Made by a program: the position numbers and the translations under genes | The notes under the pieces: model-generated | The model's input: only the letters and a program-made list of their open reading frames with translations | What the model was told of the DNA's origin: nothing | Database searches by the model: none | Shown here: positions 37,219 to 46,497 of the stretch, in pieces | Layout: each line of letters opens with the position of its first letter | Position numbering within the stretch: the first letter of the stretch is position 1 | Assembly (NCBI GenBank): GCA_965247095.1 | Contig: OZ251997.1 | Span: 1,216,001-1,280,000, forward strand | DNA length: 64,000 bases | Reading direction: 5' to 3' | Source: Candidatus Multivorans sp. | GTDB lineage: Bacteria > Acidobacteriota > Thermoanaerobaculia > Multivoradales > Multivoraceae

Positions 37219-38475
37219 ATGAAGTTCCTGCGCAAAATCCTCGACCGTCAGGCCCGCCACTTCGAGCCGGGCGGCCGCTTCGAGCGCTTCTACCCCCTCT
37301 ACGAAGCGCCCGACACGTTTCTCTACACGCCCGGCAAGACGACCGCCGGCGCCGCCCACGTACGCGACGCGCTCGACCTGAAGCGCCTGATGATGACGGT
37401 CGTCGTCGCGCTGGCGCCGTGCGTGCTGATGGCCATGTTCAACACGGGACGCCAAATCCACCTGGCGATCGCGGGTGGCGCCACCCCCCTGCCCAACTGG
37501 CGCACCGACGCGATGGAGCTGCTGGGGCTGCCCTTTGATGCGAGCAGCGTGCTCGCCAACTCGGTTCACGGCGCGCTTTACTACCTGCCGGTCCTGATCG
37601 TGACCTTCGCCGTCGGCGGCGCGTGCGAAGGGCTGTTCGCGGTCGTCCGGCGCCACGACATCAACGAGGGCTTCCTGGTCACCGGCATGCTCTTTCCGCT
37701 GGTCCTGCCGCCGACGATCCCCCTTTGGCAGGTTGCGATCGGCATCGCCTTCGGCGTCGTCGTCGGCAAGGAGATCTTCGGCGGCACCGGCTACAACGTG
37801 CTGAACCCGGCGCTTACCGCGCGCGTCTTCCTGTTCTTCGCCTACCCGGTCCAGATCTCGGGCGATGCGGTGTGGATCGCGGCCGGCACTTCGGCCGACG
37901 GGTACAGCGGCGCCACCGCGCTCGGCGTCATCGCGGCGCATAAGGCTGAACCCGATTCGAGCGTCGCCGTGCTCGACGGGCTGGCCGCCATCAAGGACGA
38001 CGTATCGTGGATGCAGGCCTTCCTGGGCGACATTCCGGGTTCGTTGGGCGAGACGTCCACCGTCGCCTGCCTGATCGGCGCCGCCATCCTGATCGCCACC
38101 GGCATCGGCTCCTGGCGCATCATGGTTGCCGCCACCGCGGGATCCCTCGCCATCTCCCTGCTGCTGAACCTGGCCTCGTCGGCGACGAATCCGATGCTCT
38201 CCGTGCCCTTCCACTGGCACGTGGTGCTCGGCGGCTGGGCCTTCGGCATGGTCTTCATGGCCACCGATCCGGTCAGCGCGGCGCAAACGAACCGGGGCCG
38301 GTATATCTACGGTTTCCTGGTCGGCGTGCTGGCGATCCTGATCCGCACCGTGAACCCCGCCTTTCCGGAAGGCGTGATGCTCGGGATCCTGTTCATGAAC
38401 CTGTTCGCGCCCCTGATCGACCACTACGTCCTGAAGGCGAACATGAAGCGCCGTCAGGCGCGCTACGCACAATAG
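37219..38475 (+). CDS. nqrB: Na+-NQR subunit B
   Basis: HVRD.LDLKR.M, KEIFGGTG.N.LNPAL, SGAT FMN site and FMATDPVS. Confidence 0.97.
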   Translation: MKFLRKILDRQARHFEPGGRFERFYPLYEAPDTFLYTPGKTTAGAAHVRDALDLKRLMMTVVVALAPCVLMAMFNTGRQIHLAIAGGATPLPNWRTDAMELLGLPFDASSVLANSVHGALYYLPVLIVTFAVGGACEGLFAVVRRHDINEGFLVTGMLFPLVLPPTIPLWQVAIGIAFGVVVGKEIFGGTGYNVLNPALTARVFLFFAYPVQISGDAVWIAAGTSADGYSGATALGVIAAHKAEPDSSVAVLDGLAAIKDDVSWMQAFLGDIPGSLGETSTVACLIGAAILIATGIGSWRIMVAATAGSLAISLLLNLASSATNPMLSVPFHWHVVLGGWAFGMVFMATDPVSAAQTNRGRYIYGFLVGVLAILIRTVNPAFPEGVMLGILFMNLFAPLIDHYVLKANMKRRQARYAQ

Positions 38476-38496
38476 ACTGGCTGGCGGAGCTTCCCG

Positions 38497-39279
38497 ATGC
38501 CCAACCGACAGGCCACCGGCTACACCCTTCTGTTCGCGACCGCGATCTGCATCGTCTCCGGTATCCTCGTTTCCTCGTCCGCGGTCACCCTCGAAGATCG
38601 CCAGAACGCGAACGCCGCTCTGTACAAGCAGAAGCGGGTGCTCGAAGCGGTGGGACTGCTCCAACCCGGCGAGTCGGTTACCGCGGAACAGGTGGCCGAG
38701 CGCTTCAAGCCGATCGAACCGGTGATCGTCGACCTCGCCTCGGGCGAACCGCAGGCCGACGCCGACGCGGCCACCTTCGACCAGCAGCGGCGGGCCCGCG
38801 ACCCGGCCACCAGCACCGAAGCGCCGACCAACCCGGCCAAGGTCAAGCGGGTCCCCGACCAGGCACTGCTCTACGAAGTGCGAGACGACGACGGCGAGCT
38901 CGAGATGGTCGTTCTGCCGATCGAGGGCCTCGGACTCTGGGGCACCCTCTACGGCTTTCTGGCGCTCGGCGCCGACACCACGACGGTGCGCGGCATCACC
39001 TACTACCAGCACAAGGAGACGCCGGGCCTGGGCGGCGAGGTCGACAACCCGCGCTGGAAGAACCTGTGGCCGGGGCGCCGGGCCTTCGACGACGACGGCT
39101 CGTTCCGGCTGGAGGTGATCAAGGGCCAGGCCGCCAGCGCGGAGCAGGATCCGTACCGCGTCGACGGTCTGAGCGGCGCCACGATCACGAGCCGGGGAGT
39201 AACGAACATGCTTGACTTCTGGCTCGGCGACAAGGGCTTCGAGCCCTACCTCGACCGGATCCGCGCGGAGGCGAACTGA
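38497..39279 (+). CDS. nqrC: Na+-NQR subunit C
   Basis: [26 protein letters not shown] and [14 protein letters not shown]. Confidence 0.96.
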
Positions 39280-39905
39280 TGGCGATCAAGAAGAGCGAAG
39301 CGGCGCTCGATCCGCTGTGGAACAACAACCCCATCGCACTCCAGGTGCTCGGCATCTGCTCGGCGCTGGCGGTGACCACGAAGATGGAAACCTCGCTGGT
39401 CATGTGCGCGGCCGTCATCTGCGTGCTGACCGTCTCCAATCTCACGATCAGCCTGCTCCGCCATCAGATCCCGAACAGCATCCGGATCATCGTCCAGTTG
39501 ACCGTGATCGCTTCGCTCGTCATCGTCACCGACCAGATCCTCAAGGCCTACGTGTTCGAGATCAGCAAGCAGCTCTCGGTGTTCGTCGGGCTGATCATCA
39601 CCAACTGCATCATCATGGGACGGGCTGAGGCGTTCGCGATGCAGAACCCGCCGTCCCTCGCGATCATGGACGGCATCGGCAACGGCCTCGGCTACAGCGC
39701 GGTGCTGATGGCCACTGCGGTGCTGAGGGAGCTGTTCGGCTCCGGGAAGCTGTACGGCGTCTCCATCCTGCCCACCGTCTCCGAGGGCGGCTGGTACCTG
39801 CCGAACGGCCTGATGCTGCTGTCGCCCGCCGCGTTCTTCATCATCGGCGGCATCATCTGGGCGCTCCGCGTCTGGAAGCCCGCACAGGTCGAGATGGACG
39901 GCTAG
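39279..39905 (+). CDS. nqrD: Na+-NQR subunit D
   Basis: [18 protein letters not shown] and [20 protein letters not shown]. Confidence 0.97.
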
Positions 39906-39920
39906 GGAGGACTCCGGACG

Positions 39921-40538
39921 ATGCTCGAGGACTACCTGAACCTGGCCGTGAAGGCCATCTTCGTCGAGAACATGGTATTGACCTTCTTCCTCGGCCTGTG
40001 CTCGTTTTTGGCCGTGTCGAAGAAGGTGGAGACCGCCGTCGGCCTGGGGCTGGCGGTGATCTTCGTGCTCACCGTCACCGTGCCGATCAACAACCTGATC
40101 CAGACCTACCTCCTGAACGAGGGCGCCCTGGCCTGGATCAGCCCCGAGTTGGCCGCCTACGACCTCACCTTCCTGAACCTCCTCTGCTTCATCGGGAGCA
40201 TCGCGGCGATGGTCCAGCTCGTGGAGATGACGACCGACCGCTTCTTCCCGGCGCTTCACGCCAGCCTGGGCATCTTCCTGCCCTTGATCGCGGTGAACTG
40301 CGCGATCCTGGGCGGCTCGCTGTTCATGGTCGAGCGTGACTACGACCTCGGCGAGAGCGTCGTGTTCGGCCTCGGCTCGGGCATCGGCTGGTTCCTTGCC
40401 ATCGTCGCCCTGGCGTCGATCCGCGAGCGCCTGCGCTACAGCAACGTGCCCCACGGACTGCGCGGCCTGGGCATGACCTTCATCGTCACCGGCCTGATGG
40501 CGTTCGGCTTCATGGCCTTCGGAGGCATCCAACTGTGA
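39921..40538 (+). CDS. nqrE: Na+-NQR subunit E
   Basis: [22 protein letters not shown] and [19 protein letters not shown]. Confidence 0.97.
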
Positions 40539-41755
40539 TCACCGAAGCCCTGCTCGGGGTGGTGATGTTCACGGTCGTCATCCTGGCTCTCGTTCTGATC
40601 CTGATGCAGGCCAAGGCCCGCCTGGTCGCCGGCGGCGAAGTGCAGATCCTGATCAACGACGAGAAGTCGCTGACCGCGACGACCGGCGGCACCCTCCTCA
40701 GCACCCTGGCCGAGCATCAGATCTTCATTCCGTCGGCTTGCGGAGGCCAGGGCACGTGCGGCGTCTGCACCGTCGACGTGCTCGACGGCGGCGGCGCGAT
40801 GTTGCCGACCGAGAAGACCCACATCAGCCGTCGCGAGGCCCGCGAGGGCTGCCGCCTGAGCTGTCAGGTGAAGATCAAGGAGGACATGAAGATCGCGGTC
40901 CCGGCCGAGGTCTTCGGGGTCAAGAAGTGGCAGTGCACCGTGCGCTCGAACGAGAACGTCGCCACCTTCATCAAGGAGCTGATCCTCGAGCTCCCGGCCG
41001 GCGAGGAGGTGCCCTTCCGGGCCGGCGGCTACATCCAGATCGAGTGCCCGCCGCACGAGGTGGACTACAGCACGTTCCAGATCGAGGACGAGTACCACGG
41101 GGACTGGGACCGCTTCAAGCTCTGGAATCTGGTGTCCAAGGTCGACGAGACCGTCATCCGCGCCTATTCGATGGCGAACTACCCGGAGGAAAAGGGCATC
41201 ATCATGCTGAACGTGCGGGTGGCGACGCCGCCGCCGCGCCAGATGGACCTGCCCCCGGGCCAGATGTCGTCCTACATCTTCGATCTGAAGCCGGGCGACG
41301 AGGTGACGATCGCGGGCCCCTTCGGCGAGTTCTTCGCCAAGGATACCGACGCCGAGATGGTCTTCGTCGGCGGCGGCGCCGGCATGGCGCCCATGCGCTC
41401 CCACATCTTCGACCAGTTCCAGCGCCTCCAAGCCAACCGCAAGGTGTCCTTCTGGTACGGCGCCCGCTCCTACCGCGAAGCCTTCTACACCGATCACTTC
41501 GACCGCATCGCGGCCGAGAACCCGAACTTCACTTGGCATCTCGCGCTCTCCGACCCGCTCGAGGAGGATCACTGGGAGGGCTACACCGGGTTCATCCACC
41601 AGGTCCTGTACGACAACTACCTGAAGGACCACCCCTGTCCGGAAGACGTCGAGTACTACCTCTGCGGACCGCCGCTGATGCTCCAGGCCTGCATGAAAAT
41701 GCTCGACGACCTGGGAGTCGAGCCTGAGAACATCGCCTTCGACGACTTCGGCTAG
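40535..41755 (+). CDS. nqrF: Na+-NQR subunit F
   Basis: [43 protein letters not shown] and FDDFG. Confidence 0.97.
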
Positions 41756-41861
41756 GAATCCGCGCGGCCGGGTTGAGGTCGTCGGTAACACCCGTCTGGC
41801 GCGGGTCCGGTGGGAGGGGTCCCGAAGGGGGAATCAGTCCAAGCGGGACGGCGGACGGAGT

Positions 41862-42908
41862 ATGCCGCTGCTACTAGTCCTTGCCGGCCTGGTCGTGGGC
41901 TGCGCGCAGGCGCCGAGCGAGGTCGTGCTGCAGGGGCCAACGATGGGCACGTCTTACCGCGTCCGGGTCCTGGCCGGTTCGGACAAGCGCGAAGCGATCC
42001 GAGCGCTCGTTGAAGAGAAGCTGGCCACGGTCGACCGAGAGATGTCGACCTACCGGGAGGACTCGGAGATCTCTCGTTTCAACCGGCTTTCGGCCGGCGA
42101 GTCGCTCGTGTTCTCCGAAGACACGTGGTCGGTCCTGGAACTTGCCTGGCGGGTGCGCGATGAGAGCGGTGGAGCGTTCGATCCGACGGTGGGGCCCCTG
42201 GTCGACGCCTGGGGCTTCGGCGCGCCGGGACGCGGCTTGTCGCCGACCCCTCCCGCCGATGACCATCTCACCGAGTTGCAACGGGCGGTGGGCGCTATCG
42301 AACTATCGCCGGCCGCTCGGCAGGCGACGAAGCTCGACAGTGCTGCGGCGCTCGATCTCTCGGCTGTTGCCAAGGGTTGGGCCACGGACCGGGTCTCCGA
42401 GGCCTTGGCGGCGGCCGGCTACACGAAGCACCTGGTCGAAGTCGGTGGCGAGGTGCGCACCGCCGGCTACAGCAGTTCCGGCGGTCCGTGGCGTATCGCC
42501 ATCGAGCGACCGCCCGCCAAGGTGGCGGAGCCAGAGAACGACGCTCCTGCCGAAGCGACGACGGAAACTACTCCGCCCCGTCTGCAGCAGGTGCTGGGGA
42601 TCACCGACGGCGCCCTGGCGACCTCGGGCGACTACCGGAATTACTGGGAGCGCGATGGGGTCCGCTACTCCCACACGATCGAACCCAGGACCGGCCGGCC
42701 GGTGGTCCACGCACTGGCGTCGGCGAGCGTGATCCACGAGCGCTGCGCGGTGGCGGACGCCTACGCCACCGCCCTGATGGTGCTCGGGCCTGAAGACGGT
42801 CTGCGCTGGGCGGACGAGAACGGCGTGGCGACGTTGCTGCTGGTTTACGGCGAGTCCGGCATCGAGGAGTTGACGAGCGCGGCCTTCCGCGAACGCTTCG
42901 GGAGCTAG
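41862..42908 (+). CDS. apbE: FAD:protein FMN transferase lipoprotein
   Basis: Lipobox VVGC, G.TMGT.Y, FDPTVGPL, DLSA.AKG...D, ATSGDYR and ADA.ATA. Confidence 0.95.
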   Translation: MPLLLVLAGLVVGCAQAPSEVVLQGPTMGTSYRVRVLAGSDKREAIRALVEEKLATVDREMSTYREDSEISRFNRLSAGESLVFSEDTWSVLELAWRVRDESGGAFDPTVGPLVDAWGFGAPGRGLSPTPPADDHLTELQRAVGAIELSPAARQATKLDSAAALDLSAVAKGWATDRVSEALAAAGYTKHLVEVGGEVRTAGYSSSGGPWRIAIERPPAKVAEPENDAPAEATTETTPPRLQQVLGITDGALATSGDYRNYWERDGVRYSHTIEPRTGRPVVHALASASVIHERCAVADAYATALMVLGPEDGLRWADENGVATLLLVYGESGIEELTSAAFRERFGS

Positions 42909-42920
42909 ACTCTCCGCGAG

Positions 42921-43103
42921 ATGGCCCTCCTGCTTCTAACCATCACCGTCATCGCCGCTTGCGTGATCCTCATGTCGGTCGGCGTGCTGTTGAACGGCCG
43001 CTGCCTGCGCGGCTCCTGCGGCGGCCCGGACATCCTCGGACCCGACGGCGAGCCCCTCAGTTGCGCCAGTTGTCCCCTGCGACGTGCGCGGGAGGAAACC
43101 TGA
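42921..43103 (+). CDS. nqrM: Na+-NQR maturation protein NqrM
   Basis: TM helix followed by L.GSCGG...C..C; follows apbE. Confidence 0.8.
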   Translation: MALLLLTITVIAACVILMSVGVLLNGRCLRGSCGGPDILGPDGEPLSCASCPLRRAREET

Positions 43104-45292
43104 TCGTCACCGAGGGTGGTCCCGAGCGCCCGATCCAGATCACCCACGACGGCGAAGCGCAACCGTTCTCCCGTGGGCTGCTTGCGCGCAGCCTCTACGC
43201 GGCCGGACTCGACTTCGACCGGGCCTACCGCCGGGTGGAGCAACTGCAGCGACAGTTGCAGCGGGAAGGCACGACCAGCCTTGAGAAGCAGCACCTCGCG
43301 CAGAGGATCGCCGAACTTCTGGAAGCGGAAGAGGGCGCGGACACCGCTTCACGCTACCGGCTGATCCGTCGCCTGCGCCGGCTGCCGAAACCCCTGATCC
43401 TCTATATCGGCGGCGGCGCCGGCACGGGCAAGTCCACCCTGGCGCTCGATCTGGCGCCGCAACTGCGCATCTACCGGATCAACGCCACCGACACCGTGCG
43501 TCAGGTGATGCGGATGGTGTTTTCGCCGGCGATCCTGCCGGCACTCCACGTCTCGAGTTATGAGACCCCCGCCGATTCTGCGAGCGAGTTCGCTACCGCC
43601 GGCGGCAACACACAGGTAGCGACCCTGGAAGAGCAGGCCACCAGGGTGTGCGTCGGCGTCCGGGCGGTGGTCGAACGGGCGATTGCCGAGAACCTCAGTC
43701 TGGTCGTCGAGGGCGTCCACCTCCTGCCCGGTCTGGTTCCGTTCACCGACCTCGATGGCGAGGCCTACCAGTTCTTCACCGTGCTCTCGACCCCTGACGA
43801 GGAAGTGCACCGCAGCCACTTCCTCGCGCGCGAGTCCTTTGCCGGCAGAAGGCCGAACCGGCAGCTCGACCACTTCCGGGTCATCCGTGAACAGCAGAGC
43901 CACCTGTTGCGACTGGCTCGGGAATCGGGGATCCCGATCCTCGACACGACGGACCGGGAGGAGTTGCTTCCGACCGCCATCGCCCTGCTCGGGCAGAGCC
44001 TGTCCCAGCGACTGCCCTGGCTCACCCAGGCGTCGATGCGGTTGCTGAGCGAGCGCCGTACCCCGGCTTTCCTGCTGGTGATCGACGGTCTTCCCGACCG
44101 GCCGCTGCGCTCGCTCGGGGCGCGGACGCCGCTGGAAGCCGCGCGAACGCCTACGCTCGACCGGCTGGCCCGGGAAGGCGCCTGCGGTCTGGCCGACCCG
44201 ATAGCGCCCGGCGTGGTTCCGGATACGGCATCGGGAAACCTCGCCCTGTTCGCCCAGTCGCCGAGGGTGATGACCCGAGGACCCATCGAGGCACTGGGCG
44301 CCGGCCTCAAGCTGAAGACCGGAACGATCGCCATCCGCGGCAATTTCGCCACCCTCGACGAGCGCGGTTTTGTCGTCGACCGCCGGGCCGGCCGCATTCG
44401 CGAAGGGGCCAAGATACTCGCCAAGGCACTCGACCGTCTGGAACTTCCCGCCTCGGACCCGGTCAAGGTCCGCGTGCGGGCCACGACGGAGCATCGACTC
44501 GCGATCACTCTGCGCGGAGAAGGTCTCACGTCGGCCATCGAAGGCTCCGATCCGGGCGACGGCGCACCCTCTGGACGACCGCTGGCGCCGAGGCCTGTCG
44601 ATCCGAACGACGACAGCGCCGAGCGCACTGCACGCGTCCTGGCCCTGTTCGAGCAGGAGGCGCGGCGAGTGCTGGCGCGGCATCCGGTGAACGAGGAACG
44701 GCGTGAGAACGGCGAACTGCCGGCGAACGCGGTCCTGACTCGAGGAGTGGGCCGGGTCCACCGGCTTCTGCCCCTGGAGCCGGGCGGTCTGCCGCTCAGC
44801 GCGGCCTGCATCGGCGGCGACCGGACGGTGATGGGCATCGCCTCGGCACTCGGCGCCTCCGTCATCCGCCGTCGCGGCATGACCGCGAACGTGGACACGG
44901 ACTTAGGCCTCAAGTTCGATAGCGCCGCCGAAGCGCTCAAGGAGCACGACCTGGTCATCGTTCACGTGAAGGGCGCCGACATCGCCGCTCACGATCGCCG
45001 CCCCGATCTGAAGGTCGCCTTCCTCGAGCGCCTCGACCGCGAACTCGGCGCCCTGATCGAGAGGCTGAAACAGCCGATCCGTGTCGCCGTGACGGCCGAC
45101 CACGCCACCCTGTCCGAGGTCGGCGCCCATGGCGCCGATCCGGTGCCGGTGCTGATCTGGGGCGACGGGATCGCACCCGATGCGGTGACCAGCTACGGCG
45201 AGCGTGCCGCCAGCACCGGCAGGCTGAACCGGTTCCCGCTCCAGCTCCTGGTGGAGCGGCTGTTTGAGCAGTACGGCGACGAGGCGTCCTGA
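43100..45292 (+). CDS. fusion of ATP-cone + 2-phosphoglycerate-kinase-like P-loop domain + ApgM-type cofactor-independent phosphoglycerate mutase-like domain
   Basis: PFSRG.LA.SL; GGGAGTGKST, TD.VR.VMR, P.LH.SSY, V.EGVHL.PG; then IDGL.D, TPLEAA.TP.LD.LA.EG..G, RGNFAT, DRRAGRI, HVKG.D.A.HD, TADH.T, H.ADPVP. Start inferred at CTG 43100 after GGAGG. Confidence 0.85.
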   Translation: MIVTEGGPERPIQITHDGEAQPFSRGLLARSLYAAGLDFDRAYRRVEQLQRQLQREGTTSLEKQHLAQRIAELLEAEEGADTASRYRLIRRLRRLPKPLILYIGGGAGTGKSTLALDLAPQLRIYRINATDTVRQVMRMVFSPAILPALHVSSYETPADSASEFATAGGNTQVATLEEQATRVCVGVRAVVERAIAENLSLVVEGVHLLPGLVPFTDLDGEAYQFFTVLSTPDEEVHRSHFLARESFAGRRPNRQLDHFRVIREQQSHLLRLARESGIPILDTTDREELLPTAIALLGQSLSQRLPWLTQASMRLLSERRTPAFLLVIDGLPDRPLRSLGARTPLEAARTPTLDRLAREGACGLADPIAPGVVPDTASGNLALFAQSPRVMTRGPIEALGAGLKLKTGTIAIRGNFATLDERGFVVDRRAGRIREGAKILAKALDRLELPASDPVKVRVRATTEHRLAITLRGEGLTSAIEGSDPGDGAPSGRPLAPRPVDPNDDSAERTARVLALFEQEARRVLARHPVNEERRENGELPANAVLTRGVGRVHRLLPLEPGGLPLSAACIGGDRTVMGIASALGASVIRRRGMTANVDTDLGLKFDSAAEALKEHDLVIVHVKGADIAAHDRRPDLKVAFLERLDRELGALIERLKQPIRVAVTADHATLSEVGAHGADPVPVLIWGDGIAPDAVTSYGERAASTGRLNRFPLQLLVERLFEQYGDEAS

Positions 45293-45293
45293 A

Positions 45294-45803
45294 TTGGCGA
45301 AGAAGATCGAGCGCCCCGTCCAGCGACGCGCTGACCTGGCCGGCGGCCGGGGCTTCGCCTGTGTCGCGCTGGACCGGCCCGCCGATCCAGTGAACGTCGG
45401 CCACGTCCTGCGCGCGGCGCTCTGCTTCCAGGCCCGCATGATCATCCTGAGCCAGCCCTCGGGAGACATCGACATCCGCCGGCTACCGACGGATCCCACC
45501 CGGGCCTACCGGCACGTGCCGGTGATCGAGGTCGAGGATCTGATCGAAGCGACCCCTCGCGACACGGCTCTGGTTGCAGTCGAGATCGTGCCGGACGCCA
45601 TCGCACTTCCCGACTTCGTACACCCCGAGCGGGCCTGCTACGTCTTCGGACCGGAGAGTGGCGCGGTTTCCGACCGCATCCTAAAACGGAGCGACCACCG
45701 GATCCGGGTTCCGACTGCCGTGTCGCTGAATCTCGGCATGACGGTCGGCGTCGTGCTCTACGACCGCTGCGCCGACCGCTGGCGCCGGAACGGCGAAGCA
45801 TAA
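45294..45803 (+). CDS. TrmH/SpoU family RNA methyltransferase (short)
   Basis: P....NVG..LRA, HPERA.YVFGPE.G and SLNL. Confidence 0.85.
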   Translation: MAKKIERPVQRRADLAGGRGFACVALDRPADPVNVGHVLRAALCFQARMIILSQPSGDIDIRRLPTDPTRAYRHVPVIEVEDLIEATPRDTALVAVEIVPDAIALPDFVHPERACYVFGPESGAVSDRILKRSDHRIRVPTAVSLNLGMTVGVVLYDRCADRWRRNGEA

Positions 45804-45804
45804 G

Positions 45805-46497
45805 TCAGTTCTCGGACGACGACGCAGCCGGCTCGGCAAACAGAGACAGCAGCGGAAGCCCGAGACGCTCGCGCACGGAGCGGCGCACCAGGCGCTGCCT
45901 GAGCTCCGGCAACCGGTCCTCGTCCACTCTTCCGGCCATCCGAGCCAGCGCCTCGCCGGCGCCCGCCACGACGGCTTCGCGGTCCGCCGGCGCCAGGGAC
46001 TCGAACGCCTGCGCCAAAAGTTCGATATCCAACTCGGCCAGCCGGGCTTCGACGTCGGGGGCCGGACCGCTCAGCCCGAGCAGCCTGCTCTGCCAGACGT
46101 CGCCACCTTCCAACGTCGCCGGTAGCGCGGACGCCAAGGCCGCAAGCCGCGCCGGCACATCGATCGCGGCCGGCCGCCGGCGCACCGGCGGTACCGCCCC
46201 CAACTCCCGGTAAACCGCCCATGCCTTCTCCACCGCCGCCCGGCAGTACCGCAAACTGCTCACCCGTCTCTTCGGCGCCTCCGGCGAGGCGGCCGCCCGC
46301 TCGGCCCGGCGCGCGAACACTTCGCGGATGCTCTCGAGGACCAACGAGAGCGGCACGCCCTCCAGCCGCCACTGCTGCGCCAAGCGCCAGTCGGCGGGAC
46401 TCAACAGCAACGGCGCTCCACGCAGCCGGATGAACTCTTCCTCGATCGCCTCGAAGTAGTCGCGGTCCCCGCTCTCAGGATCCGCTCCCGGGGTCAC
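45805..46497 (-). CDS. conserved hypothetical protein
   Basis: Coupled to birA (GTGA); YF..IEE.F..LRG..LLLSP.DW.....W...GVPL and SL.YC..AV; GC3-biased codons. Confidence 0.7.
   Translation of the reverse strand: MTPGADPESGDRDYFEAIEEEFIRLRGAPLLLSPADWRLAQQWRLEGVPLSLVLESIREVFARRAERAAASPEAPKRRVSSLRYCRAAVEKAWAVYRELGAVPPVRRRPAAIDVPARLAALASALPATLEGGDVWQSRLLGLSGPAPDVEARLAELDIELLAQAFESLAPADREAVVAGAGEALARMAGRVDEDRLPELRQRLVRRSVRERLGLPLLSLFAEPAASSSEN

Follow-up and report, generated by a model that had tools for sequence, protein, structure and literature searches.

What would a bacterium do with a 2-phosphoglycerate kinase (2PGK) that is joined, in one polypeptide, to a phosphoglycerate mutase? The question is raised by a gene on the forward strand of a 64,000-nucleotide stretch of DNA from Candidatus Multivorans sp., a member of the Acidobacteriota (GenBank assembly GCA_965247095.1, contig OZ251997.1, positions 1,216,001 to 1,280,000; hereafter the window, from whose first letter all positions are counted). 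Analysis of the sequence indicates that the product of this gene is a genuine and conserved enzyme of three parts, predicted to comprise a degenerate ATP-cone, a 2PGK-type kinase and an ApgM-type mutase with threonine at the nucleophile position. Both halves belong to known enzyme families and what is new is their fusion, the clade of Thr-type mutases and a recurrent link to phosphate genes. We favour tentatively, at chances a little short of even, a reading in which the enzyme would lead from 3-phosphoglycerate (3-PG) through 2-phosphoglycerate (2-PG) to 2,3-bisphosphoglycerate (2,3-BPG) under adenylate control and would be tied to phosphate and polyphosphate homeostasis, every step of which we infer.

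The open reading frame (ORF) listed for this gene runs uninterrupted on the + strand from 42959 to 45292. As the initial annotation had claimed, there is a single frame of about 730 amino acids: translation from 43100 to 45292 gives 730 residues with zero stops, and every motif it quoted lies where it was placed, GGGAGTGKST at residue 104 (43409-43438) and PDTA at residue 374 (44219-44230), with TDTVRQVMR, LHVSSY, EGVHLLPG, IDG, HVKGADIAAHD, TADH and HGADPVP in the same translation. Position 43100 is a CTG codon in the frame of the fused gene. Because the closest homologues are 743 amino acids long, the true start is probably the TTG at 43061, which with the stop at 45292 gives 743 residues; residue numbers used here (K111, Thr376 and so on) are counted from 43100. 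A Pfam scan of the protein returns PF10143 (PhosphMutase) with 113.8 bits and PF01676 (Metalloenzyme) with 116.2 bits.

The most trivial explanation of such a gene, that a sequencing error has joined two neighbours into an artefact of assembly, is refuted by its recurrence and can be given almost no credence. The frame goes far beyond anything expected by chance. A database search returned 721 matches, the best 120 of which are all fused proteins or their fragments (58-97% identity). Of 301 sampled Acidobacteriota genomes, 29 carry full-length, stop-free fused genes (30 such matches in all, in families f1, f3, f4, f14, f32 and f56); the 97 of 301 genomes with any match include one flagged as unpublished (G054), of which the fused-gene counts are independent. 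We refer to these acidobacterial-type fusions as tier 1 and to a more distant set, 36-39% identical, as tier 2; among 251 genomes from the group that includes G004, 10 have a full-length member of the latter set, and one further copy is interrupted. Homologues are therefore not always separate genes, and the stop or frameshift between the domains that the initial annotation had allowed for is absent from the contigs of two other studies, in which the junction is covered without a gap (X8 record 22, 42909-45333; X5 record 15, 42972-44614). Contigs from two metatranscriptomic libraries (X19, X20) cover pieces of both halves, and one RNA-library contig (42982-43210) runs from the small ORF upstream into the fused gene; since DNA carry-over is possible in RNA libraries, these are a weak hint of expression.

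The two activities also occur unfused. Separate kinase and ApgM genes are adjacent or overlapping in three genomes (G020, G141 and G195) and share an operon in a fourth (G017), and together the fusions and adjacent pairs point to one shared pathway for both predicted activities. Judged by the trees described below, the fusion has probably arisen at least twice, since two tier-2 proteins, P0128 and P0131, fall outside the main fused clades in the kinase tree and in the mutase tree alike.

How good is the case for a working kinase? Residues 60-350 match the 2PGK models PRK12337 (NF008994) with 246.2 bits against an equivalog cut-off of 603 and PRK04220 (NF003259) with 220.7 bits against 343, neither of which is reached, and the mevalonate-3-phosphate 5-kinase model gives 41.5 bits on the same kinase. 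The Walker A motif (GxxGxGKS) is intact in 120 of 120 fused homologues, the best 120 of the 721 matches. Furthermore, the fused kinases retain every polar residue that is invariant in the 2PGKs linked to a cyclic 2,3-diphosphoglycerate (cDPG) synthetase (cDPGS), namely K111, T130, D131, R134, R138, H150, S152/S153, Q179, R193, E197, E204, H207, H237, R244, R250 and R263, as would be expected if the fused kinase and the cDPGS-linked 2PGK had the same substrate; for those other than S152, E204, H237 and R263, the count is 11 of 11 cDPGS-linked 2PGKs. A tree of 92 kinase domains groups tier 1 with 8 of the 10 tier-2 fusions and with 12 rows counted as stand-alone (SH-aLRT 99 for this clade). Of these 12, six fall within fused groups and, judged by their length, look like fragments.

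The ATP-cone-like N-terminus proposed in the initial annotation apparently survives in reduced form. A single weak repeat is left, corresponding in the alignment to the second cone of the stand-alone 2PGK-like proteins, and its 22.4 bits lie below the PF03477 gathering score of 25.8. The stand-alone relatives, of ~390 amino acids, carry two ATP-cone-like repeats and some carry three; homologues of ~820 amino acids carry PF03477, the fused acidobacterial proteins of this length having two cones, and the window's genus retains the second repeat only. An AlphaFold2 (AF2) model built from 38 fused sequences, a check suggested at the outset, is confident (pLDDT 89.3, pTM 0.83) and predicts a beta-hairpin and helices for residues 13-94, the ATP-cone stretch. 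In Foldseek comparisons the kinase part of the model resembles UMP/CMP and adenylate kinases (NMP kinases; TM ~0.6 to targets), while the C-terminal part matches 2zkt_B (TM 0.84, normalised to target) and then cofactor-independent phosphoglycerate mutases (iPGMs) and phosphopentomutases. Family scans and conservation among homologues uphold the three-part architecture.

The C-terminal 400 residues pass the apgM subfamily model TIGR00306 with 327.6 bits against a cut-off of 320, and PDB entry 2zkt matches this half with an E value of 5.6e-69; the ApgM equivalog NF003104 (PRK04024) is not reached (366.6 bits against 489), and the unfused kinase-linked ApgMs of two loci, L080 and L174, pass it with 494 and 493.4. 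The serine phospho-acceptor of ApgM lies in a GSD motif that the fused protein lacks: PDTA stands where ApgM has PGSD, as first noted, and Thr376 aligns with the Ser of GSD in 2zkt, 3kd8 and 3idd, GSDTAHL becoming DTASGNL. Tabulation of this position, which had also been suggested, gives Thr in all 120 of the best 120 matches, and a tree of 125 ApgM domains likewise shows Thr in each of its 26 fused or kinase-linked rows. There, one Thr clade of 59 rows (SH-aLRT 98) holds 21 of 21 fused rows, 5 of 5 unfused 2PGK-adjacent ApgMs and 31 of 34 stand-alone Thr-type rows, and all 63 Ser-type rows lie outside it; as this is a quick IQ-TREE analysis without a mixture model, its deep branches are to be read with caution. 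The altered nucleophile is a real departure from the canonical ApgM loop but no peculiarity of this protein, being clade-wide (59 of 125 rows). The five unfused kinase-linked ApgMs all have Thr in a loop, GTDVGHL, that retains Asp and His, and no kinase gene was found in the flanks of 24 stand-alone Ser-type ApgM loci (0/24). We propose that the Ser-to-Thr switch marks a clade of ApgM mutases that would work with these kinases. To our knowledge this clade has no assayed member, and no solved structure falls within it in the mutase tree. A Thr phospho-acceptor is compatible with mutase chemistry in this superfamily, since T85 variants and the phosphorylated form of Bacillus cereus phosphopentomutase are among the PDB fold matches.

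The remainder of the active site appears to be that of a mutase. In the 63 Ser-type ApgMs, 74 columns reach 80% conservation or more, and nearly all of these are preserved in the fused proteins. D329, D627, H631, D667, H668 and H677, which by analogy with iPGM chemistry we take to be the ligands of a binuclear metal site, are conserved in 11 of 11 tier-1 and 10 of 10 tier-2 fused rows, so that the ligand set described as intact in the initial annotation is apparently so in all 21; the same is true of the Arg/Lys positions assigned to substrate binding, R393, R413, R428, R429, R432, R466, R534, R548, K605 and K624. With so much retained, a functional mutase supplying the kinase is more likely than an enzyme given over to phosphatase activity.

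That degree of retention bears directly on the interpretation with which the initial annotation had paired the mutase, that of a kinase/phosphatase switch. On this view the kinase would make 2,3-BPG from a monophosphoglycerate, and the Thr-type ApgM domain would act mainly as a 2,3-BPG phosphatase by way of a phospho-Thr, so that one polypeptide under ATP-cone control would set the level of 2,3-BPG, by analogy with PFK-2/FBPase-2 or PPIP5K/Vip1. These last are eukaryotic bifunctional kinase-phosphatases that set the level of a phospho-messenger, and the products of PPIP5K report phosphate status. The likeness is that a kinase and a phosphoryl-transfer domain would act on the same small phospho-metabolite from within one polypeptide; there is no kinship of sequence or fold, the second domain here belonging to the alkaline-phosphatase superfamily and theirs being histidine phosphatases. 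A switch would suit the alteration of the loop beyond Ser to Thr, the acidobacterial fused clade having neither the Asp nor the His of GSDxxH. It would also suit the phosphate regulators and transporters found beside related genes, which fit a signalling metabolite, and the fact that phosphatases travel with the gene, several loci having a small His_Phos_1 gene immediately upstream. Yet the mutase cap has lost none of its conserved substrate-binding residues, the split pairs keep Asp and His, and the Thr clade includes the ApgM of a biosynthetic 2PGK-cDPGS-ApgM operon, in which a mutase is sensible and a 2,3-BPG phosphatase would be futile. We consider the switch unlikely.

The scores below both equivalog cut-offs open another route, in which the pair would act on a different phosphorylated acid or polyol and would yield a multiply phosphorylated compound other than 2,3-BPG. 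COG2074 offers precedents in mevalonate-3-phosphate 5-kinase and in plant LPA1, which acts in phytate synthesis; the clade of the fused kinases is separate from most cDPGS-linked 2PGKs; and the relatives of ApgM include PhpG and a proposed homoserine kinase. According to PMC6417671, rice LPA1 (low-phytic-acid 1) is a 2PGK homologue tied genetically to the phosphorus-storage pathway and its storage compound; the same paper considers whether 2,3-BPG regulates inositol-phosphate phosphatases. LPA1 thus resembles the fused enzyme in having a COG2074-type kinase with a tie to phosphorus storage, and differs in being eukaryotic, in having no mutase domain and in its only weak homology. However, the kinase core has exactly the polar residues of the cDPGS-linked 2PGKs, the mutase cap likewise has the residues found in canonical ApgM, the score on the mevalonate-3-phosphate 5-kinase model is poor, as given above, and the PhpG model reaches 244 on the fused protein against a cut-off of 545. 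A substrate outside the phosphoglycerates therefore seems to us improbable.

The host genome allows two further questions to be asked, as the window lies within a single 4.62-Mb contig that is 98.96% complete: does the fused gene supply the ordinary glycolytic mutase, and could its product be cDPG? Databases automatically annotate the family as 2,3-bisphosphoglycerate-independent phosphoglycerate mutase, and searches of the genome found neither GpmI nor canonical GpmA (the cofactor-dependent mutase, dPGM), the best match to the latter being a 227-amino-acid cobC-like histidine phosphatase; both facts would fit a plain cofactor-independent mutase, in which the kinase-like part would be a dead or non-catalytic kinase serving as a nucleotide-sensing module. 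Against this, the Walker A motif is intact in all of the best 120 of the 721 matches and the kinase residues for catalysis and for the substrate are conserved from one group to the next, and the same genome holds a separate Ser-type ApgM (L002:1465-2817, loop TPGSGPGHL) that scores 482.3 on NF003160 against a cut-off of 468 and probably does the glycolytic job; most fusion-bearing genomes have a second ApgM match. We hold a plain glycolytic mutase with a dead kinase to be very improbable.

The initial annotation had reported no cDPGS in the window, and this extends to the whole genome. A profile was built from 8 cDPGS-like proteins of metagenome operons (one of the seeds, L103:4583-5965, matches PDB 8ORU at 1e-117) and run with filters off and with 3 held-out positives as control; the best match in the host genome scored 8.6 bits (E 1.5), against 440-650 bits for the held-out proteins. 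Two cDPGS proteins used as single queries found nothing in this genome, and five other fusion-bearing genomes gave none apart from one P-loop match of 18.6 bits. A Walker-A screen of the genome's long ORFs, with 102 motif matches and no clear candidate, was set aside in favour of the profile search.

We return, then, to the reading that we favour. The mutase domain would convert abundant 3-PG to 2-PG, the kinase domain would phosphorylate 2-PG with ATP to give 2,3-BPG, and adenine nucleotides bound at the ATP-cone would set the rate of this synthesis. Because the host genome has no detectable cDPGS, the end product would be 2,3-BPG itself and not cDPG. Rather than glycolysis, 2,3-BPG would most likely serve the homeostasis of phosphate or polyphosphate, either by buffering phosphate or by acting as a signal of status, a role suggested by the orthologous loci of two groups, fused or adjacent, which repeatedly adjoin phosphate transporters, PhoU or DUF47 regulators, phosphate porins, PPK1 and PPX.

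Those neighbourhoods are as follows. Among the distant tier-1 loci, a divergent PPK1 and a 169-amino-acid His_Phos_1 gene lie directly upstream of the fusion in nine (L036, L037, L039, L044, L164, L165, L178, L185 and L188). A Na/Pi cotransporter and a PhoU-domain gene are directly upstream in L038, L040 and L045, and stand further off, together with PPX, in L044, L178 and L185. The operon in G017 with separate genes reads Na/Pi cotransporter, PhoU, PPX, ApgM, CBS protein, kinase. In tier 2 the neighbouring families differ from those of tier 1 and the phosphate theme is the same: a phosphate-selective porin O/P in L204, L207, L210 and L212, DUF47/PhoU_div in L204, L205, L208 and L211, a PHO4 transporter in L204 and L205, and PPK1 in L053. 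One common tblastn screen, counting loci with at least one phosphate-related gene in the flanks, found 7 of 18 diverged tier-1 fused representatives, 8 of 10 tier-2 fused loci, 1 of 4 split kinase-ApgM pairs and 5 of 32 stand-alone two-cone kinase loci, against 0 of 24 Ser-type ApgM control loci and 0 of 11 cDPGS-linked 2PGK control loci, the neighbour queries having been taken from fused loci and the controls being partly from distant taxa, in which diverged PhoU proteins and transporters may be missed. When fused and split loci are clustered at 75% identity, PPK1, PPX, PhoU or Na/Pi genes lie within ~8 kb in 9 of 22 clusters. This recurrent link to phosphate genes is new here and lay outside the view of the initial annotation.

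Several points weigh against the route to 2,3-BPG and its proposed role, of which the bias of queries and controls just mentioned is one. The role of the product is read from gene neighbourhoods, and 13 of the 22 clusters, including the window's own-genus cluster of 35 loci, have no phosphate-related neighbour; in this genus the fused gene is flanked by nqr, apbE and spoU. COG2074 also holds kinases for other substrates, and 10 of the 11 cDPGS-linked 2PGKs fall in a different clade of the kinase tree. The acidobacterial fused loop, PDTA[SA]G, is without the Asp and His of the unfused kinase-linked ApgMs, and because of this loss the nucleophile chemistry of these enzymes may have changed. In the host genome no consumer of 2,3-BPG was found, there being no cDPGS, no canonical dPGM and only the cobC-like phosphatase; nor did we find in print an assay of any fused-clade member or bacterial 2PGK-like protein. 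PPK1, a PPX-like gene and a SixA-like gene are present in this genome, all away from the fused gene.

The features of the window that concern the fused gene are collected in Table 1. The upstream Na+-NQR run extends from 37219 to 42908 on the + strand and comprises ORFs resembling nqrB, nqrC, nqrD, nqrE and nqrF, with apbE at its end. The 60-residue ORF after it, which encodes one hydrophobic helix and then GSCGG...C..C and has no Pfam match, is presumably NqrM-like, NqrM being a Na+-NQR maturation factor. The order nqrF, apbE, nqrM-like ORF, fusion, spoU is that of the genus, with spoU downstream also in close relatives, and nqrF and apbE stand upstream of the fused gene throughout the genus-level group, at 45-77% identity in L040 and L046. 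In L040, nqrF, apbE, Na/Pi, PhoU and the fusion follow in a row; since this locus joins nqrF-apbE to Na/Pi-PhoU-fusion, the arrangement of the window may be a reduced form of it. A 230-residue ORF between spoU and birA (45805-46497, - strand) has no Pfam match at E 0.001.

Table 1. Positions in the window of the fused gene, its parts and its immediate neighbours.
Feature	Position	Strand	Basis and remarks
apbE, last large gene of the upstream Na+-NQR cluster	41862..42908	+	PF02424, 271 bits
60-aa nqrM-like ORF	42921..43103	+	Read from sequence; end overlaps the start of the fused gene
Whole fused gene	43061..45292	+	TTG start, 743 aa; ORF listing and homologue lengths (probable start)
Single weak ATP-cone repeat	43142..43381	+	PF03477, 22.4 bits; alignment; AF2 fold
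COG2074 P-loop kinase domain, 2PGK family	43388..43984	+	PRK12337, PRK04220; Walker A 43409-43438
ApgM-type metal-dependent phosphoglycerate-mutase domain, Thr clade	44063..45253	+	TIGR00306, 2zkt, Foldseek
Thr376 codon at the phospho-Ser nucleophile position	44225..44227	+	Alignment to 2zkt, 3kd8, 3idd
SpoU-family methyltransferase gene	45264..45803	+	PF00588, 70.4 bits; overlaps the end of the fused gene by 29 nt

Two phosphatase families recur near the fused genes. The 169-residue His_Phos_1 protein is SixA-like (L036:9043-9552) and its gene lies between the divergent PPK1 and the fusion, on the strand of the fusion; counterparts occur in L039, L044, L165, L178, L185 and L188, and the copy in the window's genome is unlinked (G000 4194734-4195213). 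It is a candidate partner phosphatase. A calcineurin-like metallophosphoesterase lies ~3 kb from the fusion in three identity clusters (L037:15189-16073, L039, L049, L043, L048) and is 28-31% identical to one that precedes cDPGS and 2PGK in nine metagenome loci, where the order is phosphoesterase-cDPGS-2PGK (L087, L103, L104, L106, L107, L134, L144, L151 and L156); this enzyme may be a shared means of breaking down the product of the kinase. The operon at L080:2201-6032 is compact and holds a two-cone 2PGK-like kinase, a cDPGS homologue and a Thr-type ApgM with the loop STDVGCL, and appears from its gene content to be a bacterial-style cDPG cassette with its own mutase.

Other neighbours were considered and set aside. 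Those of the fusions in L048 and L037 (AI-2E transporter, M16-like peptidases, GcvT, beta-CASP nuclease, HutH) are unrelated and unconserved, and those of the stand-alone double-cone kinases (a ParA-like ATPase with AMPK1_CBM, MerR, M48/S49 peptidases, an RlmN-like protein) give no metabolic lead. A MerR regulator and the ParA-like ATPase with its AMPK1_CBM glycogen-binding domain do precede stand-alone two-cone 2PGK-like genes in L093:4054-5783 and in 16-20 more metagenome loci. The only neighbour common to the three overlapping split pairs is an RsbW-like HATPase_c_2 gene.

How does the fused enzyme stand to characterised systems? The 2PGK of Methanothermus fervidus serves the cDPG pathway (Lehmacher and Hensel 1994, as cited in PMC10690619 and PMC6384925), and the archaeal enzyme serves thermoprotection, according to PMC10690619 and PMC6384925. 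The fused kinase belongs to the same COG2074 P-loop family, with a putative ATP-cone in front and a match to PRK04220 (220.7 bits), and differs in its attached mutase, its score below the cut-off, its separate clade, the lack of a cDPGS match in its genome and its mesophile-type bacterial host. With the archaeal ApgMs of Pyrococcus horikoshii (PH0037, 2zkt) and Thermoplasma acidophilum (3kd8/3idd) it shares the fold and the residues at the ligand and Arg/Lys positions, whereas it has Thr for Ser, has lost the Asp and His of GSDxxH, does not reach PRK04024 and carries a kinase. The bacterial 2PGK-cDPGS operons come nearest in L080, where a 2PGK-like gene stands alongside a Thr-type ApgM, and in the related metallophosphoesterase near some fused loci; they differ in that searches of the window genome and five other fusion genomes found no cDPGS and in that fused loci are associated with phosphate genes, as against 0 of 11 cDPGS-linked loci.

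Searches of full-text literature, subscription journals lying outside their scope, found no paper that describes the fusion, in keeping with the statement of the initial annotation that no characterised protein of this architecture was known, and no link of 2PGK or 2,3-BPG to bacterial phosphate regulators. Nor did these searches yield an experimental characterisation of the fusion, of the Thr-nucleophile ApgM clade or of bacterial 2PGK-like kinases.

A bolder version of the phosphate link would have the kinase and Thr-type ApgM, fused or split, make, and perhaps break, a small molecule (2,3-BPG or something closely related) that would signal phosphate and energy status, with the ATP-cone gating synthesis by adenylate state and the product acting on PhoU/DUF47-controlled transporters and on PPK1/PPX. 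We think this a long shot. Were it true, bacteria would have an equivalent of the eukaryotic inositol-pyrophosphate/SPX system, and PhoU-family proteins a candidate ligand. The more restrained proposal made here turns the vague automatic annotation 'phosphoglycerate mutase' into a testable one, namely a dedicated route from 3-PG to 2,3-BPG in bacteria that would make no cDPG, a Ser-to-Thr switch that would mark, clade-wide, the mutases working with these kinases, and a genomic link, repeated in two bacterial groups, to phosphate transport, PhoU or DUF47 regulators and polyphosphate enzymes. If it is confirmed, phosphate homeostasis in bacteria would gain a new metabolite, and there would be a reason why bacteria keep homologues of 2PGK.

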